Of a DNA stretch of 32,000 bases, positions 3,016 through 32,000 are shown in pieces. The notes under the pieces are model-generated. The model had not been told where the DNA came from, did not search any database, and was given only the letters and a program-made list of their open reading frames with translations. The stretch comes from Pseudothioglobus sp. nBUS_23. Lineage in GTDB: Bacteria > Pseudomonadota > Gammaproteobacteria > PS1 > Pseudothioglobaceae. Numbering within the stretch: position 1 is the stretch's first letter; each line of letters starts with the position of its first letter. The DNA lies in the NCBI RefSeq assembly GCF_051201565.1, contig NZ_CP179200.1, forward strand, positions 1,650,001 to 1,682,000, read 5' to 3'. Position numbers and translations under genes: made by a program.

Positions 3016-3096
3016 ATTATGCCATTGCTTGTAATTTAGAATAAATTAATGATTGATTATTTTTCAATAGTAAAGGAAAAATAATCATTCAATTTA

Positions 3097-3984: not shown

Positions 3985-4014
3985 AGATGTATCCTAATTT
4001 TTTGTTCAATTACT

Positions 4015-5768: not shown

Positions 5769-5805
5769 TTTAGTTTCCTAATATACGTTTATAAATTAGA
5801 TGTAG

Positions 5806-5970: not shown

Positions 5971-6128
5971 AATAAGTTTTTAACAGGAAAAGTTATTAAT
6001 GCTGGTCAATTCCTTTGCAAGGTGATTATACATTTTGTTAATCATAAATTGATAATCAAAATTGATAGCTACTTTCAACATCAAAACTAATATAAGTGAT
6101 ATTACAAAATACAGTATAAAATATTGCA

Positions 6129-14686: not shown

Positions 14687-15283
14687 CTAAATTCTTTTAG
14701 CGCTGTCCTTTAATAATCCGGCGACATAGTGTGAAAATGAATGTCTGATCATCATAAATATATTCTTTTTTTCACGATAGACAAAAACTGGTGCTTGTCC
14801 AAAAGTAGTTGAAACAGCTTTTCCATCTTGAAGGGACCCTTCGAGATCATAACTCATCCATCGACTCAATAGGTCAGTGGTTTTATCGCCTCTAAACTCA
14901 AGAGTTCCATATGCAGCTGAATTGTTTGTGATAGAAATACCAAGAGGAAGTTTATTAGTCTTCTCTTCAATTTCCAACATTTGTTGAGCGCTTAGGGAGA
15001 TCCAAAATTCATCTGGACTGACCCAAAAGCATTTTAAATCTGAATCGCCAAAGGTCGCTAGTAATGGCCCAGGAAGCTCTATATTAAAAATATCTTTTGC
15101 TACTTTGATATTCATTTTAGAGTCTTTAGATGTTCTTAAAATGAGTAGAGATTGATCTATCACTTCTTGACAACTGACGCCTTCCTGGTTGACTAAAAAG
15201 CCTTCTTCGTCAATTAGTGTATTGAAAGTTGATCTGAATTCTGGTTCCATATTCTCATGACTACTATTTTTACTCATTGCCAT
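14687..15283 (-). CDS. soxG: Sarcosine oxidase, gamma subunit
   Basis: 198-aa ORF in the canonical last position of soxBDAG, overlapping the soxA stop by 14 nt. The call rests mainly on context and size. Confidence 0.8.
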   Translation of the reverse strand: MAMSKNSSHENMEPEFRSTFNTLIDEEGFLVNQEGVSCQEVIDQSLLILRTSKDSKMNIKVAKDIFNIELPGPLLATFGDSDLKCFWVSPDEFWISLSAQQMLEIEEKTNKLPLGISITNNSAAYGTLEFRGDKTTDLLSRWMSYDLEGSLQDGKAVSTTFGQAPVFVYREKKNIFMMIRHSFSHYVAGLLKDSAKRI

Positions 15284-18200
15284 CTACCTTTTCTCCATTA
15301 GTATCATAAAAGACACTACTTGAAACTTCACAAGGTATCTCCTTAAGGCCCTGCTTTTCCTGAACAATCTTCACAAGGACAGTCTCAGACATTTTTGAAA
15401 GTCCACCTTTAAGTTGAGCTAATGCGATTGATCTTCCAAGAGCTGGGCTGTAGTAGCTTGAAGTTACATAACCAACAGAGACGCCCTTATTATTAATAAT
15501 ATGTGCTCCCTCAGGAAGCACAACCTGATCATCTTTGGTTAGAAGGCCAACTAATTGCAATCTATCTTCCGATTTTAGTGCGGATATACTAAATGAACGA
15601 CGCCCAATATAAGAAAAAGGCTTATTCTTTGCTAGAATCCAGTTCATATTAACATCCATCGGCGTCATTGAACCGTCTGTATCCTGCCCCACTATAATGA
15701 AGCCTTTTTCAGCCCGCAAAACATGCATTGATTCAGTTCCATATGGGGTGATGTTCCATTCCTTACCTTCACGAGCAACCTCATCCCATATAAAACGCCC
15801 AAAGTTTGCTTCAATATTTATTTCATAAGCCAGCTCACCAGAAAAGCTGATTCTCATAATTCTTGCTTTAACACCACAGACAGTTCCCGGGCGCCACTGC
15901 ATAAACTTAAAATTTTTGCTGTCAAAATCAACATCTGAACATAACTTTTTCATCAATTTGCGCGCATTCGGCCCAACCACAGCAACTGTTGAAAACTGAT
16001 CTGTTACACTACTTAGATGCACATCTAAATGACTCCACTCAGTTTGAAGCCACATTTCTAGTGTCGAATATACACTTGCAGCACCACCTGTTGTAGTTGT
16101 CATAATAAAATGGTTATCATTAATGCAAGTTGAAACACCATCATCAATAATCATTCCTTTCTCATTGCACATGAGCCCATAGCGACAGCTACCTGGTGCT
16201 AACTTCATCCATGCATTGGTGTAGACTCTTGATAAAAATTCTCTAGCATCCTTACCTTGAATATCGATTTTTCCAAGAGTTGAAGCATCCATCATTCCGA
16301 GTGAAGTTCTAACAGCACGACACTCTCTATTAACGGCTTGATGCATGTCCTCACCATCTTTTGGATAATACCATGGCCTATACCACTGCCCAACCACTTC
16401 AAATTCAGCACCACTATTGACATGTGAGTCGTGAATTGTTGTGAACCTTTGTGGATCGAAAAAATCCCCTAATTCTCTTCCAGCCATTGCTCCAAAATCA
16501 ACACCTGTATAAGCTGGTCTAAATGTAGTCGTGCCAACTTCAGACATAGGGGCATCAAGAAATTCTGCGGCTACAGCAATACCATTAATATTTCCAGTTT
16601 TTCCTTGGTCAGTTCCAAAGCCCATTGCAGTATATCTCTTAATATGCTCTATTGATTGGTATCCCTCTCTAATAGAAAGTGAAACGTCCAAAGTAGTGAC
16701 GTCGTTTTGAAGATCAATAAAAACTTTTGGCTTATTGAGAATTTCAAGTGGAGTAAAAAACTGATCAACATTGAAATAATTGCGGCTTTGGTTAGTGAGT
16801 TCTTGTGGATTGACTTTATTATCTTCACCCAGAGAGAGCAGAGTTAATTGTGCTTTATTCTTTGCATCAGCTATTGCATCTTTCCAGAACCCTATAGAGT
16901 TTACAGCTCCACATAACTGTCTATTCTTGCGATCTTTTTGTGCCAAGAATGATTGTGAATTTTCATCAAAATATGTTTTTCCACCGCAATGACAATCTAA
17001 ATGCACTACCGGATTAAATCCTCCTGACGTTGCTAATAAATCGCAATTTAAAGTTTGAGTATCTCCAGTCAACCTCCATTTTGACTTCCAATGTGGAGGT
17101 TTAGCTTGCATTTCCACCTTAGAGATTTCAATACCAGTAACTCTACTTTTGCCTTTTGCTTTAAGAATAGCAAAACCTTGAAAAACTTCTATTCCTAAAT
17201 TTCTTGCCTCTAAAACAATGTCACTTTCGACGCCAGATGCTCTAACGTCAATGACCTTAGACTCAACATTATGTTTTCTTAAATCAATTGCGGTATTGTA
17301 AATACTGTCATTATTACCATATAAAACAATTTCTTTTCCTGCAACTACATTGAATTCGTTTACGTATCGTCTTACAGACTGACTTAACATAATATTTGCC
17401 AAATCATTTGTCTCAAACAACATAGGGCGCTCATGCGCACCTGTCGCCAAGATGACTTCTTTAGTCCTAATCTTATGAAGTACTTTTCTTGCAGACTGAA
17501 CGCCCTCTTGAATCATTGACTGGCCAGTTCCAATAGTCTGCAATACTTCAATATAGTTATGGTCATACCATGCATAAGCAGTTGCAGATGTTAGAATTTT
17601 TAGCCTAGAGCCTGCTTCATCTCTATACTTTAAAAGTCTTTCTTTAGTTTCTTGATACCAAAGAGTTGCAGTTTGATCAGTTGTAAATTCATTGGTTAAT
17701 TCACCACCTAAATTCTCTCGCTCATCTACCAAGATAACTCTGGCTTTCTTTGAACTAGAAAGAACCTCAAGTGCGGCGCTCATTCCTGCAGCACCACCGC
17801 CGATTACGAGCACCTCGGTATGTTGAAAAATATGATCATAAACATCTTCGTCAATCTCTGAAGGCGCTTTTGAGAAGCCTGATAATGACCTGAGACGATC
17901 CTCAACAATTGACCAAACCTTCTGCTTGATAAAGGTTTTATAGTAGAAACCAGCTGGCATAAAACGATGCAGTGGCTTAATCATTGCACGAAAGTCAATC
18001 GAATGCGGGTTGCTTGAACTGACCGCACTTAAGCCATCATAAAGCATGATTTCAGTTGCCTTCATATTAGGCGTATATCTGCCACCAATTTCAAGCGAAA
18101 CTAGGGCGTTTGGCTCCTCAACTCCAGCACCAATAATGCCTCTCTTTCGTCCGTATTTGAAACTTCTTGCATAATATAAAACATTGTTGGCAATTAGGGC

Positions 18201-18308
18201 TGACGCTAAAGTATCGCCTTTGAAACCCTTATAGGCTTTATTGTTAAAAACGAAGCTTAAGGGCTGGTTGTAATCGATAAGGCTGTTTGAATGTTTCTCT
18301 ATTCTCAT
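15270..18308 (-). CDS. soxA: Sarcosine oxidase, alpha subunit
   Basis: 1012-aa ORF with a dinucleotide fold (VLVIGGGAAGMSAALE) and a C-terminal GcvT-like folate-binding/aminomethyltransferase domain. The ATGA overlap with soxD is seen in the sequence. Confidence 0.93.
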   Translation of the reverse strand: MRIEKHSNSLIDYNQPLSFVFNNKAYKGFKGDTLASALIANNVLYYARSFKYGRKRGIIGAGVEEPNALVSLEIGGRYTPNMKATEIMLYDGLSAVSSSNPHSIDFRAMIKPLHRFMPAGFYYKTFIKQKVWSIVEDRLRSLSGFSKAPSEIDEDVYDHIFQHTEVLVIGGGAAGMSAALEVLSSSKKARVILVDERENLGGELTNEFTTDQTATLWYQETKERLLKYRDEAGSRLKILTSATAYAWYDHNYIEVLQTIGTGQSMIQEGVQSARKVLHKIRTKEVILATGAHERPMLFETNDLANIMLSQSVRRYVNEFNVVAGKEIVLYGNNDSIYNTAIDLRKHNVESKVIDVRASGVESDIVLEARNLGIEVFQGFAILKAKGKSRVTGIEISKVEMQAKPPHWKSKWRLTGDTQTLNCDLLATSGGFNPVVHLDCHCGGKTYFDENSQSFLAQKDRKNRQLCGAVNSIGFWKDAIADAKNKAQLTLLSLGEDNKVNPQELTNQSRNYFNVDQFFTPLEILNKPKVFIDLQNDVTTLDVSLSIREGYQSIEHIKRYTAMGFGTDQGKTGNINGIAVAAEFLDAPMSEVGTTTFRPAYTGVDFGAMAGRELGDFFDPQRFTTIHDSHVNSGAEFEVVGQWYRPWYYPKDGEDMHQAVNRECRAVRTSLGMMDASTLGKIDIQGKDAREFLSRVYTNAWMKLAPGSCRYGLMCNEKGMIIDDGVSTCINDNHFIMTTTTGGAASVYSTLEMWLQTEWSHLDVHLSSVTDQFSTVAVVGPNARKLMKKLCSDVDFDSKNFKFMQWRPGTVCGVKARIMRISFSGELAYEINIEANFGRFIWDEVAREGKEWNITPYGTESMHVLRAEKGFIIVGQDTDGSMTPMDVNMNWILAKNKPFSYIGRRSFSISALKSEDRLQLVGLLTKDDQVVLPEGAHIINNKGVSVGYVTSSYYSPALGRSIALAQLKGGLSKMSETVLVKIVQEKQGLKEIPCEVSSSVFYDTNGEKVDGNE

Positions 18309-18589
18309 GACGCGTTCTCGCTATCTATTTCCTCAAAAGTCGCAACCTCGATAACTTCGTGACTAATGGTAGATCTTTTAACTAAAAAATATTTTCGACA
18401 CCCAGAAGTATGTACCCATTGCTCCCAGTGGTCACCTTTTAAATTAGTCCTATAAAATACATAATCAGCCCATTCTTCATCACCTAAGGCTTCAGGATTT
18501 TCAGGTCTTGCTATAAACGCTTCTCCTGCAGGTGAAAATTCATTTTGGTCTCTAGGTTCTTTGCAATATGGACAGTGAATTGAAAACAT
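18305..18589 (-). CDS. soxD: Sarcosine oxidase, delta subunit
   Basis: 94-aa ORF with zinc-ligand pattern CPYC...HTSGC. Its size and position between soxB and soxA are canonical. Confidence 0.9.
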   Translation of the reverse strand: MFSIHCPYCKEPRDQNEFSPAGEAFIARPENPEALGDEEWADYVFYRTNLKGDHWEQWVHTSGCRKYFLVKRSTISHEVIEVATFEEIDSENAS

Positions 18590-18608
18590 AATATTACCTT
18601 CAAATAAA

Positions 18609-19859
18609 CTAGTGGGCTACGCCAGCAGCGCCATGCTCATCAATCAGAGCACCCGTTGTAAAGCGATCAATATGAAATGGCACAGCTAAATCATGCTGCT
18701 TGTCTTGAGCAATTGTATGAGCAAAAACATTGCCTGACCCAGGAGTGGCCTTAAAGCCCCCTGTACCCCAACCGCAGTTGAAATAAAGCCCCTGAACCTT
18801 TGTTGGGCTAATCACAGGACAGGCATCAGGACAGACATCCACAATTCCTCCCCACTGACGATTCATACGAACTCTAGAAAAAATTGGAAATAATTCAAGA
18901 ATTGCTGCAGCACAATGTTCGACTATTTTCGCACTGCCACGTTGAGCATAAGAATTATAACCATCAATACCAGCGCCAATAACTAGGTCGCCCTTGTCGC
19001 TCTGACTAACATACCCATGAACAGCATTGGACATGACAACAGTATGGAGAATTGGCTTCATTGCCTCCGAAACAAAAGCTTGTAATGGATGACTTTCTAC
19101 AGGTAATCTCAATCCAGCCATTCTTGCTATGACAGATGAGTGGCCAGCACTAACGCATCCTACACGGTCTGCTAATATATCGCCCTGAGTAGTTTTAACT
19201 CCTTTGACGCGACCCTCTTCAACTTCAATATCAATTACTTCACAGTTTTGAATAATATCGACACCAAGGTTTGATGCAGCGCGAGCAAACCCCCAGGCTA
19301 CGCCATCATGTCGAGCAACCCCTGCACGAGCCTGAAAAGAAGCACCCATAATTGGATACCTGACATTTTTCGATGTATTAATTATTGGAATTTGTTCTTT
19401 GATTTCTTTGTGGTCAACAACTACAGCATCGACACCATTTAAAACATTTGCATTGACTCTTCTTTCAATATCCCTCATGTCCTGGAGTGTATGTCCAAGA
19501 TTGTATACACCTCTTTGACTAAACATAACATTGAAATTTAAATCCTCACTTAATCCCTCCCAAAGTCTCATTGAGTGCTCATAAAGACTGGATGCTTCAT
19601 CTCTCAAGTAATTGGATCTAATAATTGTCGTATTTCTTCCAGTATTACCTCCACCTATATAACCCTTCTCAACTACAGCTACATTAGTAATACCGCACTC
19701 TTTAGCCAAATAGTAAGCTGTAGCAAGACCATGTCCGCCACCGCCAATAATAATGACATCATATTTTGATTTAGGCTTTGATGATGGTATCGCCTTATCC
19801 CAGTCCTGGTTAGCTAATCCTGCTTTTAATAGCGAATACCATGAATATTTTTTTTGCAT
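18609..19859 (-). CDS. soxB: Sarcosine oxidase, beta subunit
   Basis: 416-aa ORF with FAD fold [19 protein letters not shown] and DAO-family layout. It ends in ...HGAAGVAH, typical of heterotetrameric SoxB. Confidence 0.93.
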
Positions 19860-19880
19860 AACGTTAACTCAACTAATAAT

Positions 19881-20987
19881 CTATAAATCAAGCACAATAT
19901 CACTTGTTGGATAAGAGCAACAAGTCAAAATATATCCCTCTTGTTCATGCGACTTTAAAAGTCCGCCTTGAGCATCCATTTCAACAGTTCCATCTAGCAT
20001 TTTTGTTCGACAAGTTCCACACAAACCTTGTGAGCATGCAAATGGAACAGTAATACCTTGTTTTTGAATAGAAACTAAGATACTTGTATTGCTTCCACAA
20101 GGCAAAACATCGCCGCTCTTTTTAAGCGTGACATTATATTCATTTATTTCACTTTTTGTAACTTTATGTTCCGGCAATTCGGCATTGATTGCCATATTTT
20201 TTTGAGCAGTTGAACTCTCTATATCAAAGCTCTCTTGGTGGTAGAAATTCATATCAAAAGCAGCTGATTCAAGTATTTTTTTCACATTCTGCATATAAAG
20301 CTCTGGTCCACAACAATAGATTTCTCTTTGCACAAAATCTGGAACAAGCTTGAGGAGCATCTCGTGGCTCAAAAAACCAGTGGGTCCTTGCCAACCCTCA
20401 CTAGAAACATCACAAACATAATGGCTTTTCAAATCACTTTGGTTTGATTCATAAAATTCAAGCTCGTCTTTTGAAATCAAATCCTTTTCAGATTGTGCAT
20501 TATGAACAAATGCAATATCCACATCGATTGAAAGATCATAAAAATATCTTATCATCGAGAGCATTGGAGTAATGCCACTTCCCCCTGATAAAAACAAAAT
20601 TTTAGGCTTTGGCTTATCTAGTGCTACGCTGAAAGAACCACCGATATCAAGAGCATCAACACAGTCACCAACTTTCAAATTATCGTGCATCCAGTTTGTC
20701 ACAACACCCTCAGCCATTCGTTTGTTTGTAATAGTAATGGTGTTAGGTCTTGTTGGAGTTGATGCAATAGTGTAAGTTCGCATCACATCATTTCCATCAA
20801 TTTTCAGAAAAAGGGTTGTGTGCTGCCCTGGTAAAAATTGAAACCAAGCATCCTTCTTCGATTTAAAGGTAAAACTTTTTACATTATGTGTTTCATCTTT
20901 TATATGAATACATTCCAGCGGAGAAACATCTCCCGTCCATCGAGCAAGGCCCTCTATATTAATGTTTGGAAAGACTAATTCGTTCAT
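19881..20987 (-). CDS. FNR-type flavin reductase fused to a C-terminal plant-type 2Fe-2S ferredoxin (GbcB/BmoB-like oxygenase reductase)
   Basis: 368-aa ORF with flavin-binding RTYTIAS, NAD(P)H motif LSGGSGITP and a C-terminal CSQGLCGTCRTK....C 2Fe-2S cluster motif. It lies 21 nt upstream of soxB on the same strand. Confidence 0.8.
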   Translation of the reverse strand: MNELVFPNINIEGLARWTGDVSPLECIHIKDETHNVKSFTFKSKKDAWFQFLPGQHTTLFLKIDGNDVMRTYTIASTPTRPNTITITNKRMAEGVVTNWMHDNLKVGDCVDALDIGGSFSVALDKPKPKILFLSGGSGITPMLSMIRYFYDLSIDVDIAFVHNAQSEKDLISKDELEFYESNQSDLKSHYVCDVSSEGWQGPTGFLSHEMLLKLVPDFVQREIYCCGPELYMQNVKKILESAAFDMNFYHQESFDIESSTAQKNMAINAELPEHKVTKSEINEYNVTLKKSGDVLPCGSNTSILVSIQKQGITVPFACSQGLCGTCRTKMLDGTVEMDAQGGLLKSHEQEGYILTCCSYPTSDIVLDL

Positions 20988-21206
20988 TCAACTTACGCCC
21001 ATTCTAAAACACTCAATTGTAGCATCAGAGTCTATTAATAACTCTATAAACGCTGGTTCATGTAGGTAATTATTAATTACGAAAAATGTAAATATATCTA
21101 ATTAATTATTGAATTGTTATTAGATAAAAATGTGGGAATTTTAACAATTAAAGCTTGCTAAAGCAATCTTTCATTCAAAACAAAAAAACACAGTTAATAC
21201 AGTAGT

Positions 21207-22103
21207 TTATGGCATTGGAATGTGGTGTTTTTTTCGAGCATAGACTCCCTGCATAATGATCGCAAATAAAATTGCTAACCCTCCAATCAACGTATTTCTT
21301 GTTGGGACTTCATGAATTCCAAGAACTGGAAGCCATGCCCAAAAAATACCCAATACAACTTCAAGCAGAGAGAGCATGACGAGCTCTCCACTAGGCAGGT
21401 ATTTTGCACCCAGCCCATACAATATTAGACCAATACCAACAACAAGACCGTGTGTCATGCTGATACCAATATTAGCTGATGGCATCTCAAAGCCACTACC
21501 AGTTAAAAGAATAAGAATTGTTGCCCAGATCATACAAAAGAATCCAGCAAGAGCAGGGGTTAATAACTTAGGAACCTCAGGGTTCTTTCTGATCGTAATG
21601 GTATATATAGCAAAACCTAGAGCTACAAAAAATCCGTAGATAACGCCGATGATGGTTGCTGACTTATCAGTATCCCAAACCATTATGGTAATGCCTATCG
21701 CTACAATGAGCATATTAAGTAGTGTGCTTTTACTCAGTCTCTCGCCAAGAATAAGGTATCCCAAAAATGCTGACAAAACTGGGGACACGGCAAGCATGAG
21801 CAGAGTGATTGCGACTGTGGTTGTAGTTAATGCATAAATCCAACCAAAGAATGTAACAGACATAACAAGACTACCAATAAGGCTCCATGAATCTATTCTC
21901 TTGAAGGTCTGGAAAAAGTTCCTTCCTTCCCTAAAAAGAACAAATATGAGTATGACTGAAGTTATGATTAAACCTCTGTATAGCAAATACTGCAGCCTAA
22001 AACTTTCGGCATCTTCGAGATATCTTACGAGTGGCGCTCCAAAGCTCCAGATAACACCGCTTACAACAACAAGAAAAAAACCCAGTAAATAGCTATTCTT
22101 CAA
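21207..22103 (-). CDS. DMT-superfamily (EamA-type) permease
   Basis: 298-aa, roughly 10-TM hydrophobic protein with the duplicated EamA-like layout. The start read from the sequence is TTG (caa 22101-22103), so its exact position is uncertain. It is divergent from the hydantoinase gene. Confidence 0.8.
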   Translation of the reverse strand: MKNSYLLGFFLVVVSGVIWSFGAPLVRYLEDAESFRLQYLLYRGLIITSVILIFVLFREGRNFFQTFKRIDSWSLIGSLVMSVTFFGWIYALTTTTVAITLLMLAVSPVLSAFLGYLILGERLSKSTLLNMLIVAIGITIMVWDTDKSATIIGVIYGFFVALGFAIYTITIRKNPEVPKLLTPALAGFFCMIWATILILLTGSGFEMPSANIGISMTHGLVVGIGLILYGLGAKYLPSGELVMLSLLEVVLGIFWAWLPVLGIHEVPTRNTLIGGLAILFAIIMQGVYARKKHHIPMP

Positions 22104-22260
22104 CTGATTAACCCCTTTTAATATTTGACTAAAACTAATTCCCGCATTTTGTTCCTAAAATAATTTCATGTCAATCATTTTTTAATACTCAAGTTAAGAA
22201 AATCACAATAATTTTTTGCCTATATAATTCATGTATCGAGTCAATTGATTTAAGTTTTTG

Positions 22261-25200
22261 ATGAATATTAGTGAAAAACCAAAGTGGCAATTCTGGATTG
22301 ATAGAGGTGGAACATTTACTGATATCATCAGTAAAAATCCAGATGGTGAGCTTTCAAGCCACAAGCTGTTATCTGAAAACCCTCTGCACTATAAGGATGC
22401 TGCAATTCAGGGCATTAGAGACTTGTTATCGTTAAAAGATAAAGAAGCTATTCCAATTCATCAAATTGAGTCTATCAAAATGGGCACTACAGTTGCTACC
22501 AATGCACTCCTTGAAAGAAAAGGAGAAAAAACACTATTGGCAACCACGAAAGGGTTTGCAGATATTTTAAGAATTGGATACCAACAAAGACCTAAATTAT
22601 TTTCTTTAGATATTCAGCTCCCTGAAATGCTATATTCTGAAGTGGTTGAGATTGATGAACGAGTTGATAAGGCAGGGAAAGTATTAAAACAGCTTAACAC
22701 TATAGATACAAAAAAAATATTAACCGAGGCCTTTATTAAGGGCTTTAGATCTATTGCAATTGTGTTGTTGCATGGATACCGATATCAAGAGCATGAAAGG
22801 CAAATTAGCTTAATTGCTGAAGAAATTGGGTTTACCCAAATTTCTGTAAGTCATCAAATAAGTCCACTAATGAAAATCATACCTCGAGGAGATACCACAG
22901 TAGTCGATGCCTACTTGTCTCCTATTCTGCGTCGCTATGTTGATCAAGTGAGAGCTGAACTTGGACCCAGCCAATCGAACTATGGTCGATTAATGTTTAT
23001 GCAATCCAATGGCGGTTTAACCGATGCCAATTATTTTCAAGGGAAGGATGCTATTCTTTCAGGTCCAGCAGGCGGCGTGGTTGGAATGGTCAAAACTGGA
23101 GAAACAATTGGACTAAGAAAACTGATAGGTTTTGACATGGGAGGCACCTCAACTGATGTATGTCACTACAGCGGAGAATATGAGAGAACTCTTGAGACTG
23201 AGGTTACCGGTGTCCGACTCAAATCGCCAATGATGCTCATCAATACTGTTGCAGCAGGTGGAGGCTCTATTCTTCATTTCGATGGAGCGAGGTATCGCGT
23301 CGGTCCAGAATCAGCTGGAGCTTTTCCTGGTCCAGCCTGTTATCGCAACGGTGGTCCTTTGACAGTCACAGATTGTAACGTGATGCTTGGCAAGTTAAAC
23401 CCAGATTACTTTCCAAACGTATTTGGCCCTAATGGCAATCAAAAACTTGATATTGATATTGTTAAAAGAAAATTTACCTCTCTAGCTACAGAAATTTCAT
23501 CAAGCACTAAGACAACTGTTACTCCGCTCGAAGTTGCCGAAGGCTTTTTATCCATTGCTATTGATAGCATGTCAAATGCAATCAAAAAAATATCAGTTCA
23601 GCGTGGTTATGATGTCAGCGACTACACACTCTCTTGTTTTGGCGGGGCTGGAGGACAACATGCGTGCATGGTAGCAGACAAATTAGGCATCAAAAAAATA
23701 CACCTCCATCCCTATGCAGGGGTTTTATCTGCCTACGGTATTGGACTTGCTGATAGCCGCACAATCAATGATTTAGCAGTTGAATTACCTTTAGAGGCAA
23801 GCTTAATAGATCTATTGAATAAGGACTTTAAAAAGCTTCATGCCAATGGTCGACAAGAGCTAGTTTCTCAAAACTTAAACGAAAAACTATTCCAATATAC
23901 TGATCGAGTCTATCTAAGATATAAAGATTCGGACACATCCTTACCAGTTACATTTGCTAACTTTTCAGTCATGAAATCAAACTTTGAGAGGACTCATATT
24001 TCAAGGTTTGGATTCATATCGCCAGAAAAGGCCATCATCATTGAATCAATTCAGACAGAGGTGGCATGTCAAAGTGGGCAATTGAATTCTCAGGTAAATT
24101 CTCACAATACATTAATCACTGAGTCTCTAACAACTCAAGATGTATTTATGAATGGGAAACTCGAAAAAACTATTTTTTATAATCGAGACAACATCAAACC
24201 AAATGAAAAAATCTCTGGACCTGCTGTCATTATTGAGCCAACCTCAACATTCATAATTGAACCAGGCTGGGAGGCAATCCTCAAAGACAGTAAGGATTTA
24301 ATTTTAACTCGTACACAAAAAGCTCTGAGGCAGAATGCAATTGGAACAAGTGTAGACCCTATCATGTTAGAAATTTTTAATAACTTATTTATGAATGTTG
24401 CAGAACAAATGGGTATGGTTCTTGAGAATACGGCCTCATCTGTGAACATCAAAGAGCGTCTAGACTTTTCCTGTGCAATATTCTCTCCGACAGGTGAGCT
24501 CGTTGCAAATGCACCTCATGTGCCAGTTCATTTAGGTTCGATGAGTGAATCCATCAAAACTATTATTCGTGAAAATTCACTGACTATGAGTTCTGGAGAC
24601 GCCTTTCTAATTAATGCGCCTTACAATGGTGGCACTCATTTGCCAGATATCACCCTAATAAAGCCTGTATTTGATGACTCGAATGAGGAGGTGATTTTCT
24701 ATGTTGCAACAAGAGGGCATCATGCCGATATAGGAGGGACAGTTCCGGGCTCAGCCCCAGCAAATTCAACTCATATTAAGGAGGAGGGTGTTTTAATCGA
24801 CAACTTTACGATCGTCTCTAAAGGTATATTCCTTGAAGATGAAATAACTGACTTATTGACTCAAGCGGACTACCCTGCAAGAAACATAGTTCAAAATATT
24901 GCGGATTTAAAGGCTCAAGTTGCAGCGGCAGAAAAAGGCTCTCAAGAGCTTCAAAAAGTCATTGAGCAATATGGAATAAAGGTCGTTCATGCCTATATGG
25001 GTCACGTACAAGACAATGCAGAGGAATCGGTTCGACGTGTGCTAGATGTTCTCAGTGACTCAAGTTTTACCTACCAGATGGATGATGGTCATCAAGTCTC
25101 AGTATCTATCAGAGTAGATAAATTGAATCGATCTGCAACTATTGACTTTACAGGTACTAGCGACCAACACCCAGGAAACTATAATGCACCCAGCGCAATT

Positions 25201-25884
25201 TGTTATGCAGCAGTACTCTATGTTTTTCGCTGCCTAGTCGATGATGATATCCCCCTAAATTCGGGATGCTTAAAACCTTTAAATTTAGTCATTCCCAAAA
25301 AATCAATGATTAACCCTGAATACCCTGCTGCAGTTTTTTCAGGCAATGTGGAAACATCTCAATACATTGTTGATACCTTGCTTGGTGCTCTTGGAAATTA
25401 TGCAGCTTCACAAGGAACAATGAATAACTTTATTTGGGGTAACGACAAAGTTCAAAATTACGAAACTATCTGTGGTGGCTCAGGGGCTAGTATCAATCAG
25501 CCAGGTTGTAGTGCAGTTCATACCCATATGACTAACTCAAGACTCACTGACCCTGAGGTTTTGGAATGGCGCTTCCCAGTGAAACTGGAATCCTTTAGTA
25601 TCAGGCAAAGTTCAGGTGGCAAAGGTTTGCACCCTGGGGGAAATGGAGTAGATCGAAGGCTGCGCTTTCTTGAACCAATGACAGTTAATGTCATCGCGGG
25701 TCATAGAAAAATACCGCCATATGGCTTATCTGGAGGAGGGTCAGGTGCTCTTGGTGAAAACTATGTCATTCATTCTGATGAGAGCGTGACACATCTTGAA
25801 ACTAAAGGACAAATTGAAGTAGGTAAAAATGATCTCTTTATACTTAAAACGCCTGGAGGTGGTGGTTTTGGAAAAACCATATAA
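22261..25884 (+). CDS. Fused hydantoinase A/hydantoinase B family enzyme (ATP-dependent 5-oxoprolinase/N-methylhydantoinase-type)
   Basis: The N-terminus WQFWIDRGGTFTD and DMGGTSTD (actin-like ATPase, HyuA half) are followed by a HyuB-like half (DPIMLEIFNN...ERLDFSCA...GGTHLPD). The two halves are fused as in eukaryotic-type oxoprolinases. I prefer the ATG at 22261 over the TTG at 22258. Confidence 0.85.
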   Translation: MNISEKPKWQFWIDRGGTFTDIISKNPDGELSSHKLLSENPLHYKDAAIQGIRDLLSLKDKEAIPIHQIESIKMGTTVATNALLERKGEKTLLATTKGFADILRIGYQQRPKLFSLDIQLPEMLYSEVVEIDERVDKAGKVLKQLNTIDTKKILTEAFIKGFRSIAIVLLHGYRYQEHERQISLIAEEIGFTQISVSHQISPLMKIIPRGDTTVVDAYLSPILRRYVDQVRAELGPSQSNYGRLMFMQSNGGLTDANYFQGKDAILSGPAGGVVGMVKTGETIGLRKLIGFDMGGTSTDVCHYSGEYERTLETEVTGVRLKSPMMLINTVAAGGGSILHFDGARYRVGPESAGAFPGPACYRNGGPLTVTDCNVMLGKLNPDYFPNVFGPNGNQKLDIDIVKRKFTSLATEISSSTKTTVTPLEVAEGFLSIAIDSMSNAIKKISVQRGYDVSDYTLSCFGGAGGQHACMVADKLGIKKIHLHPYAGVLSAYGIGLADSRTINDLAVELPLEASLIDLLNKDFKKLHANGRQELVSQNLNEKLFQYTDRVYLRYKDSDTSLPVTFANFSVMKSNFERTHISRFGFISPEKAIIIESIQTEVACQSGQLNSQVNSHNTLITESLTTQDVFMNGKLEKTIFYNRDNIKPNEKISGPAVIIEPTSTFIIEPGWEAILKDSKDLILTRTQKALRQNAIGTSVDPIMLEIFNNLFMNVAEQMGMVLENTASSVNIKERLDFSCAIFSPTGELVANAPHVPVHLGSMSESIKTIIRENSLTMSSGDAFLINAPYNGGTHLPDITLIKPVFDDSNEEVIFYVATRGHHADIGGTVPGSAPANSTHIKEEGVLIDNFTIVSKGIFLEDEITDLLTQADYPARNIVQNIADLKAQVAAAEKGSQELQKVIEQYGIKVVHAYMGHVQDNAEESVRRVLDVLSDSSFTYQMDDGHQVSVSIRVDKLNRSATIDFTGTSDQHPGNYNAPSAICYAAVLYVFRCLVDDDIPLNSGCLKPLNLVIPKKSMINPEYPAAVFSGNVETSQYIVDTLLGALGNYAASQGTMNNFIWGNDKVQNYETICGGSGASINQPGCSAVHTHMTNSRLTDPEVLEWRFPVKLESFSIRQSSGGKGLHPGGNGVDRRLRFLEPMTVNVIAGHRKIPPYGLSGGGSGALGENYVIHSDESVTHLETKGQIEVGKNDLFILKTPGGGGFGKTI

Positions 25885-25925
25885 ACTAGAGACAACAAAT
25901 TTAGCTCTATTAATAGGAGACAACT

Positions 25926-26789
25926 ATGAAAACAATTAACCTAAGCCCAGAACCCAATGACGCTGAAATTAGACGAGCAATGAAGCCAGTCATTTCTTAT
26001 CCTATTGATAATCTGCCAGCCTTTGATCAAGATTTTTATATAAATGCCAGTTCAAATATGGATCTCGTGGAGTCCATCATTATTCCCCCAAGAGATGCAA
26101 AAACTTTTGAAGTTCCGGCTGGATACTTTTTTCGAATTATTAGTCGAGAAGGCCCACAGGTCGGTGATTTAAATCTATGGCATAAGAATAATATGAATGA
26201 ACGATTCTTCAGTGGCAAAACACGAGCGCTTTACGGGACTCATGTAAGCACTGGTGATAGACTTTATTCAAACCTGCCATTTCTAAGACCGATGGCCACT
26301 ATTACTCATGACACTTTGGATTGGTATGGTTACGATGATGATGGTGGTAGCGTCCATGATGTCATTGGAACTCGTTGTGACCCTTATACCCATGTTGCTC
26401 TTAATAGTGAGGAGTACCATTACTGTTGTCACTCTAACTTATGCAGGGCACTTTCATCTCATCAACAAAAACCAATTAATGAAATTGAGCATCTTGTTCA
26501 TGATGTACTTAACGTCTTTATGTGCACTGGATTTACCAAAGATACGCATCAGTATTTTATGAAAGCTAGTCCAGTTCGCCCCGATGACTATATAGAATTC
26601 TTTGCCGAAATTGATCTTGTTTGCGGGTTGTCAGCATGTCCAGGTGGTGATTGCAGCTCCAGTCACTCGAGTGATGCGGCTGCATGCTATCCCCTGCAAG
26701 TTGAGATTTTTAAACCAGTTGAAGGGGCAGTAAAACAATGGTCACCCCAAGCAATAAATAAGTACTCAAGAAATCACGGCTCCAGTTAA
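25926..26789 (+). CDS. DUF1989-family protein (family of urea-carboxylase-associated proteins / carboxyguanidine deiminase subunits)
   Basis: 287-aa ORF with DUF1989-like blocks IPPRDAKTFEVPAGYFFRII..EGPQVGDLNLW, HDVIGTRCD, CHSNL, LNVFM and DYIEFFAEIDLVCGLSACPGGD. An AGGAG sits 6 nt upstream of the ATG. The gene starts 41 nt after the hydantoinase stop. Confidence 0.75.
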   Translation: MKTINLSPEPNDAEIRRAMKPVISYPIDNLPAFDQDFYINASSNMDLVESIIIPPRDAKTFEVPAGYFFRIISREGPQVGDLNLWHKNNMNERFFSGKTRALYGTHVSTGDRLYSNLPFLRPMATITHDTLDWYGYDDDGGSVHDVIGTRCDPYTHVALNSEEYHYCCHSNLCRALSSHQQKPINEIEHLVHDVLNVFMCTGFTKDTHQYFMKASPVRPDDYIEFFAEIDLVCGLSACPGGDCSSSHSSDAAACYPLQVEIFKPVEGAVKQWSPQAINKYSRNHGSS

Positions 26790-26818
26790 AATTCAACTTT
26801 GAATTAGGATGAATTAAG

Positions 26819-27685
26819 ATGGAGAACTTAAAGGGCATTTTATTTATGATTCTCGCTATGGCAGGTTTTGCATTTGAGGATCTTTTTATTAAATTGCTCT
26901 CAACTTATTTTCCAATATCAGAAGTAATAATAATTCTTGGGTTTACTGGTACATTTATATTCTTCATTATTGCACTTCTACAGAATGCACCAATTATTCA
27001 TAAAGATTTATTAAATAAACACGTAATAATTCGAACAATTTGTGAACTCTTAGGAGCAGTTTTTTTTGTTACAGCAATCGCTTTAACACCTCTTTCATCT
27101 GCCACAGCAATTCTACAAATATCGCCATTATTAGTAACAATTGGTGCTGTAGTATTTTTTAAAGAAAAAGTAGGTTGGAGGCGTTGGACAGCTGTATTTA
27201 TTGGCTTTATAGGTGTATTATTGATTGTTCGTCCTGGCTTCGAGGGATTTATGCCAGCATCAATATTTGCAATACTTGGATCCGTCTTTCTTGCAGCTCG
27301 AGATTTAGCAACTCGCGCTATGCAAGTTAAACTTCCTTCGGTAACAATAGCACTATATGCCTTCATAGCTTTTGGAATCTCAGGCATTCTAATCATTCCA
27401 TTTAACTCGCCAATGGTACTTCCTACATCTAATCAAATTATTTATTTTATTGGCGCATCTGCCTTTGGTGTAATTGCTTATTACTCTCTTGTTATCTCTT
27501 CAAGAATTGGTGAAATGTCAGTTATATCTCCTTTTAGATATTCAAGGATAGTTTTTGCTATGTTGCTTGCAATTATCATTCTTGATGAGAATCCAGATGG
27601 CTTAACTCTAATTGGAGCTTCGATTGTAGTAGCCTCAGGACTTTATACATTCGTTCGTGAAACTGTTTTAAAAAAATCACAATAA
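26819..27685 (+). CDS. DMT-superfamily (EamA-type) permease
   Basis: 288-aa, roughly 10-TM protein with two EamA-like halves. It starts 29 nt after the DUF1989 stop on the same strand. Confidence 0.8.
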   Translation: MENLKGILFMILAMAGFAFEDLFIKLLSTYFPISEVIIILGFTGTFIFFIIALLQNAPIIHKDLLNKHVIIRTICELLGAVFFVTAIALTPLSSATAILQISPLLVTIGAVVFFKEKVGWRRWTAVFIGFIGVLLIVRPGFEGFMPASIFAILGSVFLAARDLATRAMQVKLPSVTIALYAFIAFGISGILIIPFNSPMVLPTSNQIIYFIGASAFGVIAYYSLVISSRIGEMSVISPFRYSRIVFAMLLAIIILDENPDGLTLIGASIVVASGLYTFVRETVLKKSQ

Positions 27686-27751
27686 ATTTAAATCTTTTAA
27701 AAAACCATCACTTCATGTATAAAAACTTAAAATATTTTGTTTATAAAAAGC

Positions 27752-27780
27752 TTGCTATACTTAGCGAAATTGTCTAACAT
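27752..27780 (+). promoter_or_regulatory. Candidate sigma70-type promoter for the creatinase gene
   Basis: TTGCTA (27752-27757), a 17-nt spacer, then TAACAT (27775-27780), 33 nt upstream of the creatinase ATG. AGGAG lies at 27803-27807. Hexamer matches arise easily by chance in AT-rich DNA. Confidence 0.3.
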
Positions 27781-27812
27781 CCGCACAAATTAACGCAAAC
27801 ACAGGAGTTACT

Positions 27813-29018
27813 ATGAACATGCCAAGAACAATTCACATTCCTAATGGTGAGAATATAGTTCACACATTTAGTGATGAAGAATACCAAAATAGACAAAGAA
27901 AACTAAGGGCACATATGGCTCAAAGCAATATAGACACAGTAATCTTTACCTCTATACATGGCATCAATTACTACAGTGACTTCCTTTACTGTTCTTTTGG
28001 GAGGCCATACGCACTGGTTGTTACTCAAGATAAAGTAACTTCGGTGACAGCAAATATTGATGGTGGTCAGCCATTCAGAAGAACGTTTGGAGACAACCTG
28101 GTTTATACAGACTGGCAAAAGGATAGCTTTTTTTACGCACTACAGCAGATTGTGAATAATGGTGGAAAAATCGGGATTGAGTTTGATCATATCACCAAGG
28201 AGCGTCTAGATAAACTCCAGGCTGCATTTGACCAATCACAATTTATTGATATTTCTGTTGACTGCATGAAAATGCGATCAGTTAAATCAGATGAAGAAAT
28301 AGCTCACATTATTCAGGGTGCTAACGTTTGTGATATTGGTGGGGCGGCTCTTGTTGAAGCGATTAAAGAGGGCGTTCCTGAGCACGAAGTGGCTCTTCAC
28401 TCTACTCAAGCTATGGTTCGAGAAATTGCTAAACGCTATCCTCACTCAGAGCTCATGGATACCTGGACTTGGTTTCAGTCTGGAATCAATACTGATGGTG
28501 CGCATAACCCTGTGACAACAAGAAAAGTTCAAAAAGGAGACATCCTCAGTCTTAACTGTTTTTCAATGATTGCGGGCTACTATGTTGCACTTGAAAGAAC
28601 CCTGTTTTATGACCATGTTGATGATGAGTCATTGAGGCTTTGGGAGATCAATGTAAAAGTTCATGAAGAGGGGATGAAACTAATCAAGCCAGGGGTTGCT
28701 TGCAAAGATATAGCTCTTGAACTTAATAAAATTTTTGAAGAGTATGGCTTGCTTGAAAGTAGAACATTTGGCTATGGCCATTCATTTGGTGTTCTATCTC
28801 ATTACTATGGCCGTGAAGCAGGCGTAGAACTGAGAGAAGATATCGATACCGTCCTTCAAAAAAATATGGTCGTATCCATGGAGCCTATGATCATGATTCC
28901 TGAAGGTAAACCTGGTGCCGGAGGCTACAGAGAGCATGATGTGATGGTTTTGACTGAGGACAGTGCATATGACATCACTAAGTTTCCGTTTGGGCCAGAG
29001 CATAACATTATCAAGTAG
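27813..29018 (+). CDS. Creatinase (creatine amidinohydrolase), M24 pita-bread fold
   Basis: 401-aa ORF nearly collinear with Pseudomonas putida creatinase as recalled: YSDFLYCSFGRPYALVVT, ANIDGGQP, MDTWTWFQSGINTDGAHNPVTTRKV.KGDILSLNCF.MIAGYY.ALERTLF, RTFGYGHSFG.LSHYYGREAG.ELREDIDTVL, GAGGYREHD. Confidence 0.92.
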   Translation: MNMPRTIHIPNGENIVHTFSDEEYQNRQRKLRAHMAQSNIDTVIFTSIHGINYYSDFLYCSFGRPYALVVTQDKVTSVTANIDGGQPFRRTFGDNLVYTDWQKDSFFYALQQIVNNGGKIGIEFDHITKERLDKLQAAFDQSQFIDISVDCMKMRSVKSDEEIAHIIQGANVCDIGGAALVEAIKEGVPEHEVALHSTQAMVREIAKRYPHSELMDTWTWFQSGINTDGAHNPVTTRKVQKGDILSLNCFSMIAGYYVALERTLFYDHVDDESLRLWEINVKVHEEGMKLIKPGVACKDIALELNKIFEEYGLLESRTFGYGHSFGVLSHYYGREAGVELREDIDTVLQKNMVVSMEPMIMIPEGKPGAGGYREHDVMVLTEDSAYDITKFPFGPEHNIIK

Positions 29019-29036
29019 CATCACTCCTATTAAGAA

Positions 29037-29807
29037 ATGCTAAACATAGAATATTCCGAACTACTCACTGAATTGCGAGAAGTGGCTAGAGACGCTGGCA
29101 GTGAAATAATGAAGATCTATGAAAGTTCTATTGATGTTAACTATAAGCATGATGGATCGCCGGTTACTCTTGCAGATGAGGCTGCTGAAAAAGTCATCTT
29201 AAGTAGACTCAAAAAAATCACTCCTGACATCCCAATAGTATCTGAAGAGAATACCAATAGCCATAAATTAGAGGCTAGTAATCAATTTTTTCTGATTGAT
29301 CCGCTTGATGGAACAAAAGAGTTTCTAAAGAAAGATGGCCTTGGTTCTTTTACTGTGAATATTGGCCTTATTGAAAATGGCATCCCAACTTTAGGGGTTG
29401 TTTTTGCACCAGCACTTAATCGTATGTTCTTTGCATCAATCTCGACAGGCGCTTTTGAGGAGTCAGCGAGTGACACTAAGGAGATTAAAATAAGAGCGGT
29501 TCCAAATTCTGGCCCTGTAGCCGTTGCGAGTGTATCTCATCGTGATGAGACCACAGATGAATGGCTAACAATTAACAATGTCAACAAAACCATTTCAATA
29601 GGCTCATCATTGAAATTTTGTCTGGTGGCCTGTGGTGAAGCAGATGTATATCCTAGATTTGGCCCAACAATGGAGTGGGATACTGCAGCGGGAGATGCTG
29701 TATTAAGGTCCGCAGGTGGCAAAGTCTTAATGCCGAATAGCGAACCATTCAATTATGGCAAACAAAGCTATAGAAATAGCGCTTTTATTGCACATGGAAA
29801 TTTTTAA
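29037..29807 (+). CDS. cysQ: 3'(2'),5'-bisphosphate nucleotidase (inositol monophosphatase family)
   Basis: 256-aa ORF with motifs VSEEN, LIDPLDGTKEF and WDTAAGDAVL. It lies 18 nt downstream of creatinase on the same strand. Confidence 0.8.
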   Translation: MLNIEYSELLTELREVARDAGSEIMKIYESSIDVNYKHDGSPVTLADEAAEKVILSRLKKITPDIPIVSEENTNSHKLEASNQFFLIDPLDGTKEFLKKDGLGSFTVNIGLIENGIPTLGVVFAPALNRMFFASISTGAFEESASDTKEIKIRAVPNSGPVAVASVSHRDETTDEWLTINNVNKTISIGSSLKFCLVACGEADVYPRFGPTMEWDTAAGDAVLRSAGGKVLMPNSEPFNYGKQSYRNSAFIAHGNF

Positions 29808-29826
29808 TTGAAGTTCTAGAGCTGAC

Positions 29827-30345
29827 CTAGCTCTCGTATGAATAAATCTCTACCATCATCTCATCAGCTATAAGCTCGAGCTTGTCTCTGACAAGATGCT
29901 CATCAAGATCACTAGGTATATGAAGTGTAATTTGAGCCTTAAAAAGCTGCTCTCCTGACATCGAGGCATCAATAATTTCAGTCTTTAACTCTTCAACATT
30001 AGCTTTCAACTCGTCCGCCAAAACGTGGGAAAGTTTATTAATAATTCCAACATGATTTTGCCCAATAAGCTCGATGCTATAACTTTTAACATTACTCAGC
30101 TCATCAATTGGCAGAGTTTCCTCACAAGCAATTTGAAGACCTAAAGATGCGGAAGTTAAATCTTTTTTTAGTTTAGAAGCGTCACTTGATGGCACGTTGA
30201 CTTTAAGAATTCCAGCGAATTTGCCTTCAAAACTAGACATATTGCTCTCAATCCAGTCACCATTGTTTGAAACAATAATCTTTGACAGGCCGTCAACAAG
30301 CCCAGGCTTATCGTCTCCCAAAACGCTAATCAAAAATGATTTCAT
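29827..30345 (-). CDS. gcvR: Tandem-ACT-domain protein, GcvR-like (glycine cleavage system regulatory protein)
   Basis: 172-aa ORF with two ACT-like halves beginning LISVLGDDKPGLV and IELIGQNHVGII. It sits 6 nt downstream of gcvP on the same strand. The layout resembles E. coli GcvR. Confidence 0.55.
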   Translation of the reverse strand: MKSFLISVLGDDKPGLVDGLSKIIVSNNGDWIESNMSSFEGKFAGILKVNVPSSDASKLKKDLTSASLGLQIACEETLPIDELSNVKSYSIELIGQNHVGIINKLSHVLADELKANVEELKTEIIDASMSGEQLFKAQITLHIPSDLDEHLVRDKLELIADEMMVEIYSYES

Positions 30346-30351
30346 AAAAGT

Positions 30352-32000
30352 CTACTTATAATCTTCAATACTTGGACAAGAACAAACTAAATTCTTATCA
30401 CCATAGACATTATCCACTCTAGAAACTGGCGGCCAGTACTTCACTCGCCTTAAACTCTCGACAGGATATGCTGCCTCTTCCCTGGAATACGAAAACTCCC
30501 ATTGGGTTGATGTTACCATTTCTAAAGTGTGTGGCGAATTAATTAATGGATTATCTTCTGTAGAATATTCACCCGACTCAACCTTCTTGATTTCTTTTCT
30601 TATTTGAATCATTGCCTCACAGAACCGATCAAGCTCATCCAAAGACTCAGACTCTGTTGGCTCAATCATCAACGTTCCAGCAACTGGAAAAGACATTGTA
30701 GGGGCATGAAAACCAAAATCTATTAGACGCTTAGCGACATCATCAACGCTTATTCCTACTGAGTCTTTAATCGGTCTAATATCAATAATACACTCGTGTG
30801 CGATCCGTCCATTCTCATCACTATAAAGAATCGGATAGTGCTCCCCGAGTCGCTTAGCGATATAGTTTGCATTTAGGATAGCGTTGCATGTTGACTCATA
30901 AAGGCCATCTTTTCCGAGCATTGCGATGTACATCCAACTTATAGGGAGGATACTGCCTGATCCCCAAGGGGCACCTGAAATACTACCAACATCAGTATTA
31001 TTGAGTGGCGTTCTTGGTAAAAAATCTATAAGATGTTCTTTCACTCCAATTGGGCCGACACCCGGACCCCCTCCACCGTGAGGTATAGCAAACGTTTTGT
31101 GAAGATTCAGGTGAGAAACATCCCCGCCAAACTCCCCTGGAGCAGAGAGCCCAACCATAGCATTCATATTCGCGCCGTCAATATATACTTGGCCGCCTGC
31201 ATCATGAACAATATCACATACCTCTCTCACATCTTTTTCAAAAACACCATGAGTAGAAGGATATGTAATCATTATTGCAGCTAGATTTTCTTCATGCTCT
31301 TTCGTTTTTGCTCTTAAATCATCAAGATCAATATTGCCATCATCTGTACTATCAATCACTATAACTTTCATTCCAGCCATCTGAGCAGAAGCAGGATTTG
31401 TGCCATGAGCTGATGATGGAATCAAACAGATATTTCGATTTTCATCACCCCTGCTTCGATGATATCCTCTTATTGCAATTAATCCAGCATACTCTCCTTG
31501 CGCACCAGAGTTGGGCTGAAGTGAAATTGCTGAATAACCAGTCGCCTCACACAACATCTCCTCAAGCTCACTAATCATTTGCTGGTAACCAATCACCTGG
31601 TTCATAGGAACAGCGGGATGAATTTGAGAAAATTCTGGCCAACTCACTGGAATCAATTCTGCTGCTGCGTTCAGTTTCATTGTGCAAGAGCCCAACGGAA
31701 TCATAGAACGATCGAGTGCGATATCTTTATCTCCCAGATAACGAATATATCTCATCATGTTGGTTTCCGAGCGATAAGTATTAAAAACATCATGCGTCAG
31801 AAAATCAGATTCCCTCTTTAAATTCTTTTTGATTTTTGATTTATTTTTTTCAAATAATAACTGTGCGCTCAATTCAGACTCAGTATTGAAAATTCTCCAT
31901 AAGAACTCTATGTCTTCAGGAGTACTGAGCTCATCAAATGAAACTGAGACAAGGGTTTTACTGAATACATTAATGTTGTAGCCATTTTTTTCAGCTTGCA
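30352..32000 (-). CDS. gcvP: Glycine dehydrogenase (decarboxylating), single-chain P-protein; 5'-truncated by window edge
   Basis: PLP-lysine motif [19 protein letters not shown] is present. The track starts this ORF at a TTG (31872). I translated the same frame upstream, and it stays open to position 32000 (...[47 protein letters not shown]...). That sequence reads like the linker/N-terminal half of a roughly 950-aa GcvP. Confidence 0.9.

Follow-up and report, generated by a model that had tools for sequence, protein, structure and literature searches.

Do four adjacent genes of Pseudothioglobus sp. nBUS_23, which bring together a fused hydantoinase/oxoprolinase, a DUF1989 protein, a permease and a creatinase, make up a single pathway? 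The genes lie in a 32,000-nucleotide (32-kb) stretch of contig NZ_CP179200.1 (positions 1,650,001 to 1,682,000; the window), and an earlier note, made from the sequence alone, had put them forward as one candidate creatinine/N-methylhydantoin module:

22261..25884, + strand, fused HyuA-HyuB (HyuAB), 1207 amino acids (aa), with Hydant_A_N, Hydantoinase_A, Hydant_A_C and Hydantoinase_B domains
25926..26789, + strand, DUF1989 protein, 287 aa (PF09347, E 1.6e-44)
26819..27685, + strand, EamA/DMT permease (EamA_dn), 288 aa, with two EamA repeats (PF00892)
27813..29018, + strand, creatinase (creatine amidinohydrolase), 401 aa, with Creatinase_N and Peptidase_M24 domains

The coordinates, the same-strand gaps of 41, 29 and 127 nucleotides (nt) and the 1207-aa length of HyuAB were confirmed, and profile searches returned the Hydantoinase, DUF1989, EamA and Creatinase_N/Peptidase_M24 domains as claimed. 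The likely start of HyuAB is the ATG at 22261; the open reading frame (ORF) listing gives a TTG at 22258 (1208 aa). Short gaps say little about functional linkage here, because unrelated genes are equally tight: the window is ~94% coding (~37% G+C), its median same-strand gap is ~20 nt with unrelated genes included, and creatinase is separated from the following CysQ gene by 18 nt. The informative evidence is comparative. On that evidence we tentatively favor reading the segment as part of an island for nitrogen-osmolyte catabolism in a streamlined genome, a composite of two units rather than one pathway, with HyuAB and DUF1989 as an accessory cassette.

To follow the cluster within the Thioglobaceae, 25 genome loci anchored on DUF1989 and ~30 metagenome loci anchored on creatinase were compared. 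The nearest relatives of the window are contigs of Candidatus Thioglobus and other Thioglobaceae, which match its gene order throughout, at 83–99% protein identity. The loci have a common backbone in which the sarcosine oxidase (sox) genes, a GbcB-like reductase gene in some contigs and a second EamA permease gene (EamA_up) form one arm; a variable segment follows, and then an arm of EamA_dn (in some contigs), creatinase, an ACT-domain gene and gcvP. The sox arm lies on the other side in some lineages. HyuAB, DUF1989 and creatinase are linked in ~35 Thioglobaceae contigs despite these rearrangements, and this conservation, unlike the spacing, exceeds chance. In deeper lineages the genes between the arms are HyuAB, a DoeA-like M24 hydrolase, an HTH_27 regulator, DUF1989 and a choline-dehydrogenase-like GMC oxidoreductase; the window is a reduced form, with HyuAB and DUF1989 only. 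HyuAB and DUF1989 are present together or absent together in most contigs. Six contigs (L097, L102, L104, L105, L106 and L122) pass from EamA_up to EamA_dn-creatinase-CysQ-ACT-gcvP with neither gene in between, and their flanking intergenic sequences are still recognizable. Another contig (L002, 9750-10001, aligned with window positions 22103-25926) carries a clean deletion of HyuAB, which left a 17-codon remnant ORF joining the first and last codons. These seven contigs, together with three (L042, L110 and L113) in which DUF1989 stands without an upstream HyuAB, show that HyuAB and DUF1989 are accessory and separable. A metagenome-assembled contig labeled 'PS1 clade' (Alphaproteobacteria; L001) is fully syntenic with the Thioglobus contigs at 88–99% protein identity, and is probably mis-binned.

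The creatinase gene was examined by comparison with solved structures. Its product matches the Pseudomonas putida enzyme 1CHM over the full length (E 1.8e-188, 629 bits), as it does 7YTO (E 4.6e-170) and 1KP0 (E 5.9e-156), and the catalytic-histidine stretch GAHNP (SGINTDGAHNPVTTRKV) is identical in the alignment with 1CHM. The next class, the Xaa-Pro dipeptidases, is reached only at E 1.7e-20, and the ectoine hydrolases are also far away. By these alignments the product of 27813..29018 is a genuine creatinase, in agreement with the note, which had called it unambiguous. It is 70–72% identical to plasmid-borne creatinases; among plasmid records, 264 from Klebsiella and 103 from Acinetobacter carry creatinase genes.

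EamA_dn stands directly upstream of creatinase even in contigs that lack HyuAB and DUF1989. It is probably the creatine importer paired with the enzyme, creatine being its putative substrate. By strong homology, and because six sister contigs keep EamA_dn-creatinase next to sox and gcvP without HyuAB or DUF1989, the two genes form a self-sufficient creatine unit of a known kind. EamA_dn of the window is 84–95% identical to the copies in the L097-type, L009 and L121 contigs and just 72–75% identical to those in L001, L006, L008 and L093, the nearest relatives for all other genes; this mismatch suggests recombination within the island. Outside the Thioglobaceae, 49 creatinase loci (65–72% identity) were surveyed for 10 kb either way, and HyuAB or DUF1989 was found in none of them. 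The 119 neighbor proteins at these loci include 18–22 GATR-type AraC regulators and 13 MFS transporters, in line with the published creatine units of Pseudomonas and Corynebacterium (PMC8864220). The HyuAB-DUF1989-creatinase neighborhood of the note is kept within the family and does not extend to the 49 creatinase loci surveyed elsewhere. A literature search on Thioglobus with creatine or sarcosine returned nothing relevant.

We asked next what kind of enzyme HyuAB is. A search of 1.8 billion representative sequences matched it to a very large family of fused proteins at 40–57% identity, which includes an animal 5-oxoprolinase and an aphelid protein; close Thioglobaceae relatives are 82–99% identical. 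HyuAB scored 998 bits (44% identity) against the animal (Euwallacea) 5-oxoprolinase, a reference named by annotation, 444 bits against the solved N-methylhydantoinase 7HK5, and 213 and 122 bits against two caprolactamase subunits. The animal 5-oxoprolinase itself scored only 379 bits against the N-methylhydantoinase. In this three-way bit-score comparison, which is not a rooted tree, HyuAB therefore groups with OPLAH, the eukaryotic 5-oxoprolinase type, and the N-methylhydantoinase falls outside; the protein is best described, by similarity, as an OPLAH-type lactam hydrolase. Its single four-domain polypeptide, of the ~1200–1290-aa class, and its greater closeness to eukaryotic 5-oxoprolinases fit this assignment, and orthology to the characterized N-methylhydantoinase was not supported. 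7HK5 is the best solved-structure match, with, to our knowledge, no solved OPLAH to set against it. The N-methylhydantoinase-like role proposed in the note is accordingly not borne out, nor is the four-gene creatinine/N-methylhydantoin module, given an OPLAH-type HyuAB and a permease-creatinase pair that persists alone.

HyuAB homologues elsewhere keep other company. The proteobacterial fused homologues are 55–58% identical to HyuAB, and no creatinase was found beside those checked outside the Thioglobaceae. On Sulfitobacter, Burkholderia, Acidovorax and Paraburkholderia plasmids (L081, L082, L085 and L086) the fused gene ends an operon with LysR, a D-glutamate-cyclase-family 'putative hydro-lyase' and a TRAP or MFS transporter, an arrangement that suggests an uncharacterized route of the D-glutamate/5-oxo-D-proline type. 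The Qingshengfaniella homologue adjoins a divergent TRAP transporter operon, and a 57% identical homologue on a Parvibaculaceae genome contig stands alone among housekeeping genes. A conserved transporter-HyuAB pair was considered and rejected, since EamA_up is not orthologous to the EamA permease found close to HyuAB in Parvibaculaceae. In Rhizobium the homologue adjoins a divergent HTH_27 regulator, and because this regulator and that of the Thioglobaceae are 49% identical, the regulator and HyuAB appear to be an old unit in which the regulator belongs with HyuAB.

The DUF1989 protein aligns with the orphan structure 3DI4 over residues 9-285 (E 1.1e-123), which identifies it, by homology, as an orthologue of this structural-genomics protein without assigned function. 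Among 66 orthologues from several phyla, 89 of the 287 positions are at least 98% conserved, including C151, C167 and C238. C151 and C167 are spaced like the first two members of the zinc triad of Tdm, the trimethylamine N-oxide (TMAO) demethylase (16 residues), and the second spacing is 71 residues against 64 in Tdm; a Zn-Cys3 site is predicted at the three cysteines. Zinc cysteines of DUF1989 structures have been described (PMC12560246). The protein is a poor match to the models for the carboxyguanidine deiminase subunits CgdAB (TIGR03424, 40 bits, cut-off 284.7; TIGR03425, 21 bits, cut-off 205.95), and there is one gene rather than two. Neither urea/guanidine carboxylase nor allophanate hydrolase genes were found in the window. 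The Tdm model gave 25.9 bits (cut-off 1100), and the GcvT domain is absent. Since Tdm also has a DUF1989 domain, the carboxyguanidine deiminases are not, as the note had it, the only characterized members of the family.

Neighbors of the DUF1989 orthologues were surveyed in 20-kb neighborhoods. In five SAR116 contigs (L047 8117-15187; L060, L061, L065 and L069) an orthologue of 62–66% identity sits in a protocatechuate/beta-ketoadipate cluster, with pcaD on one side and pcaC-pcaH-pcaG on the other, after which come CoA-transferase-like genes and pcaF; pcaB (carboxymuconate cycloisomerase) was not identified among the annotated genes of this cluster. Weaker recurrences are a GMC oxidoreductase near DUF1989 in Pseudolabrys and Ehu-type transporters in Rhizobiales. 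On a Shinella plasmid (L087 10001-13274) the genes that come after DUF1989, in the same orientation, encode a close DoeA paralogue (444 bits against the ectoine hydrolase model, under its cut-off) and an M20 amidohydrolase like DoeB2. DUF1989 of Rhizobium sp. CB3060 (L177) has a true ectoine synthase gene as its neighbor. A link to ectoine-like cyclic amidines is possible. A general link of DUF1989 to ectoine genes (Ehu, DoeA/DoeB-like, EctC) was not upheld, the cases being confined to Rhizobiales plasmids and the DoeA-like gene of the Thioglobaceae, and we keep it as a lead only. A general link to M24 proteins was rejected as well, as it was seen only in Thioglobaceae, Leucothrix and Shinella. 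Plasmid records of Klebsiella, 41 in all, carry a 50% identical paralogue in the order ABC transporter-GntR-DUF1989, and on Klebsiella plasmids this paralogue lies near a cluster of PxpA, D-Glu-cyclase-family, PxpBC-like and biotin carboxylase genes; creatinase and DUF1989 are both carried by Klebsiella plasmids, and in the plasmid checked they were not adjacent.

Outside the Thioglobaceae, the pairing of DUF1989 with an ATP-dependent ring opener was seen mainly in Rhizobium. On a Rhizobium sp. NZLR1 plasmid, DUF1989 is inserted between an SDR gene and the fused HyuAB with its HTH_27 gene. On four other Rhizobium plasmids (L177, L178, L179 and L180; ~1880-6860) it ends a unit of GntR / PxpA, fused PxpB/PxpC-like, biotin carboxylase/BCCP and DUF1989 genes lying ~50 nt apart, which resembles a split urea-carboxylase-like enzyme plus LamB/YcsF and DUF1989. 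The Rhizobium orthologues form one group, 78–83% identical to each other, and the four Pxp-linked members are 79–83% identical to that of NZLR1. In Gemmobacter, pxpA and pxpBC-like genes are divergent from DUF1989. The occurrence of one tight DUF1989 group beside two non-homologous ATP-dependent oxoprolinase-type systems is, as far as gene context can tell, the strongest sign that HyuAB and DUF1989 adjoin in the window for a functional reason. The note's association of DUF1989 with an ATP-dependent ring opener is supported by the Rhizobium adjacencies; its creatinine side is not, as no creatinine-related neighbor was seen outside the Thioglobaceae save one creatinase in Leucothrix pacifica.

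Under the two-unit reading, the EamA permease would import creatine, creatinase would split it to sarcosine and urea, and the adjacent soxBDAG and glycine-cleavage genes would take sarcosine to glycine and C1 units. In the second unit, HyuAB would use ATP to break the ring of a five-membered lactam, and its OPLAH-type placement favors 5-oxoproline or a near analogue as the substrate. DUF1989 would most likely be a zinc enzyme acting next to the HyuAB step, which could hydrolyze a cyclic amidine or an activated amide and so supply the lactam or act on its activated form. This role as a zinc hydrolase or deiminase is drawn by analogy with the ATP-dependent carboxylase and DUF1989 deiminase of guanidine catabolism. 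HyuAB and DUF1989 are probably a working pair on a five-membered lactam or cyclic amidine, joined in the cassette of the deeper Thioglobaceae by the DoeA-like M24 hydrolase and the HTH_27 regulator. The two units would be neighbors through a common niche and probably regulation, not as consecutive steps of creatinine breakdown.

A wider form of this reading would make the 3DI4-type DUF1989 proteins zinc deiminases or hydrolases of cyclic amidines and guanidines that pass a five-membered lactam or hydantoin to an ATP-dependent ring opener, HyuAB in Thioglobus and the PxpA/PxpBC-like/biotin-carboxylase system in Rhizobium; the Thioglobaceae pair would then yield an amino acid, beside the creatine unit, from creatinine or from a cyclic amidine derived from ectoine or glutamine. 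We regard this extension as unlikely.

Several observations weigh against a working HyuAB-DUF1989 pair. The 44% identity to the animal 5-oxoprolinase is insufficient to fix the substrate of HyuAB. The HyuAB-DUF1989 adjacency seen outside the Thioglobaceae is the NZLR1 insertion, in 1 of 88 plasmids sharing that junction, and Pxp genes stand beside DUF1989 in only 1 of ~55 genome loci. The 69 immediate neighbors of DUF1989 orthologues outside the Thioglobaceae fall into 92 Pfam families, none of them seen more than twice. Within the family, L002 keeps both DUF1989 and the upstream promoter region intact despite its HyuAB deletion, and L042, L110 and L113 have DUF1989-GMC-EamA-creatinase with unrelated genes upstream and no HyuAB there (trpF, trpB and sbmA in L042).

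Such observations would be expected if the genes were simply juxtaposed, HyuAB being a housekeeping or scavenging 5-oxoprolinase and DUF1989 unrelated to it, both brought beside creatinase by a compact genome and the gathering of nitrogen-scavenging genes in one island. The dense coding and tight spacing even of unrelated genes, the stand-alone orthologue in Parvibaculaceae, the absence of a conserved DUF1989 neighbor in most lineages, the indels that separate HyuAB, DUF1989 and creatinase genes, and the single Rhizobium plasmid in 88 are all consistent with juxtaposition. It is harder to see how chance would place a tight DUF1989 group beside two non-homologous oxoprolinase-type systems, or remove HyuAB and DUF1989 together in six contigs. 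Juxtaposition is somewhat unlikely in our estimate, and stays a serious rival because little evidence for the pair comes from outside the family and some contigs keep DUF1989 after the loss of HyuAB. The surviving DUF1989 genes could alternatively mean that DUF1989 belongs with creatinase rather than HyuAB, as a non-homologous creatininase or as an enzyme that processes a guanidino or ureido product. DUF1989-GMC-EamA-creatinase without adjacent HyuAB (L042, L110, L113), the persistence of DUF1989 in L002 and its convergent orientation with a bona fide creatinase in Leucothrix pacifica point this way. We consider this improbable: six Thioglobaceae contigs and the 49 other loci have creatinase without DUF1989, and the adjacency is known from two lineages only.

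The creatinine extension of the creatine unit proposed in the note comes in three forms: (a) DUF1989 would deiminate creatinine to N-methylhydantoin, which HyuAB would open; (b) DUF1989 would hydrolyze N-carbamoylsarcosine; or (c) HyuAB would be an ATP-driven creatinine lactamase that supplies creatinase. Turning creatinine into N-methylhydantoin changes an acyl-guanidine to an acyl-urea, just as carboxyguanidine deiminase does; the nearest solved structure to HyuAB is an N-methylhydantoinase, and the cassette lies precisely where the sox arm meets the creatine unit, as an indel relative to the backbone. The canonical creatinine enzymes are also missing, as the note had stated: creatininase (PF02633), CodA-type deaminase and isochorismatase-type amidase (the N-carbamoylsarcosine amidase type) are absent from all ORFs of the window. 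Routes (a) and (b) are each short of one enzyme in the window. HyuAB is much nearer to 5-oxoprolinases than to the N-methylhydantoinase, the link is absent from the 49 other creatinase loci and from every checked HyuAB locus outside the family, and the Rhizobium DUF1989 partners sit among amino-acid and ectoine-type genes. We give the creatinine routes little credence.

Further features of the window, on the opposite strand, are as follows:

14687-15283, - strand, soxG (42.7 bits, below the 143.95-bit cut-off)
15270-18308, - strand, soxA (TIGR01372, 1141 bits, just below the 1164-bit cut-off)
18305-18589, - strand, soxD, assigned by position and size alone
18609-19859, - strand, soxB (TIGR01373, 676.7 bits, above the cut-off)
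19881..20987, - strand, GbcB-like FNR/2Fe-2S reductase, with FAD_binding_6, NAD_binding_1 and Fer2 domains
21207..22103, - strand, EamA_up, the second EamA/DMT permease (Pfam), divergent from HyuAB
22146..22174, - strand, promoter-like site TTGACA-17-CAAAAT for EamA_up (promoter scan)
30352..32000, - strand, C-terminal part of gcvP (glycine dehydrogenase; TIGR00461 model positions 434-939)

The genes soxBDAG, for heterotetrameric sarcosine oxidase, span 14687..19859. The start of soxB is 2.4 kb from HyuAB, farther than the ~1.3 kb given in the note for soxBDAG, with the GbcB-like reductase and EamA_up genes in between. The reductase gene adjoins soxB and is missing in some relatives (L017, L018, L019 and L029); it scored 340 bits against NF058606, under the cut-off of 500, and no Rieske oxygenase partner for it was found in the window. 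EamA_up has no close relationship to EamA_dn and holds the same position in most Thioglobaceae loci. Two genes, CysQ and the one with the ACT domain, separate creatinase from gcvP, which is cut by the window end: its frame is open to base 31998, and its relatives are 921–955 aa long. In the ORF listing gcvP begins at a TTG and is 506 aa long.

The promoter-like site of EamA_up is inside an intergenic block kept across Thioglobaceae variants (L002, L097, L105). A promoter and terminator scan of 20900-30400 gave 18 promoter-like sites, fewer than the 28.9 in shuffled sequences, and operon boundaries could not be drawn from it. No Rfam match was obtained at the gathering threshold in the window and seven related loci, nor at E up to 1 in 18000-30500, so that this region offers no riboswitch clue.

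The creatine part of the locus is ordinary. It points to a compact route from creatine to glycine, with an EamA-type importer, in heterotrophic SUP05/Thioglobus bacteria, an abundant group in the ocean. The new lead is the separable HyuAB-DUF1989 pair, not the creatine unit, and the link to creatinine is unsupported. The 3DI4-type DUF1989 proteins, with a solved structure and thousands of marine homologues, gain a testable class of partners, oxoprolinase-type enzymes that depend on ATP and come from two unrelated families. Should the pairing be true, it would point to an unrecognized step in how cyclic nitrogen compounds (5-oxoproline relatives, creatinine or ectoine-like solutes, for instance) are turned over; if the deiminase-to-ring-opener reading is also true, it would be an undescribed two-enzyme route and would give a function to an orphan family widespread in marine metagenomes. 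The locus also cautions that gene adjacency in streamlined genomes is a poor guide to pathway membership.

How does the locus compare with known systems? Creatine units in which a transporter and the creatinase CreA lead to sarcosine oxidase are known in Pseudomonas putida and Corynebacterium (PMC8864220; bioRxiv 10.1101/2021.11.02.466972). Like these, the window has creatinase directly downstream of a permease and near soxBDAG, which would take creatine to sarcosine and urea and then on to glycine; unlike them, its permease is of the EamA/DMT rather than the MFS CreT type, and there is no GATR/AraC regulator. HyuAB shares the four-domain fused architecture and the length class of OPLAH (EC 3.5.2.9), but differs from the known 5-oxoprolinase system in that the Thioglobaceae gene travels with DUF1989, a DoeA-like hydrolase and an HTH_27 regulator. 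It belongs to the same superfamily as N-methylhydantoinase (EC 3.5.2.14; PDB 7HK5/9H03), also in fused form, whereas the creatinine deaminase and N-carbamoylsarcosine amidase genes of that route are absent from the window. Guanidine carboxylase acts with the carboxyguanidine deiminase CgdAB, composed of two DUF1989 subunits (Schneider et al., 2020, as cited in PMC12623156). The window resembles this system in combining an ATP-dependent activating enzyme with DUF1989, as do the Rhizobium operons that pair a 3DI4-type DUF1989 with a split urea-carboxylase-like enzyme, but it has a single DUF1989 gene, with HyuAB as the partner instead of a biotin carboxylase. In Tdm, DUF1989 is fused to a GcvT-like domain; the DUF1989 protein of the window is only 287 aa long, and its match to 3DI4 names it without explaining its function.

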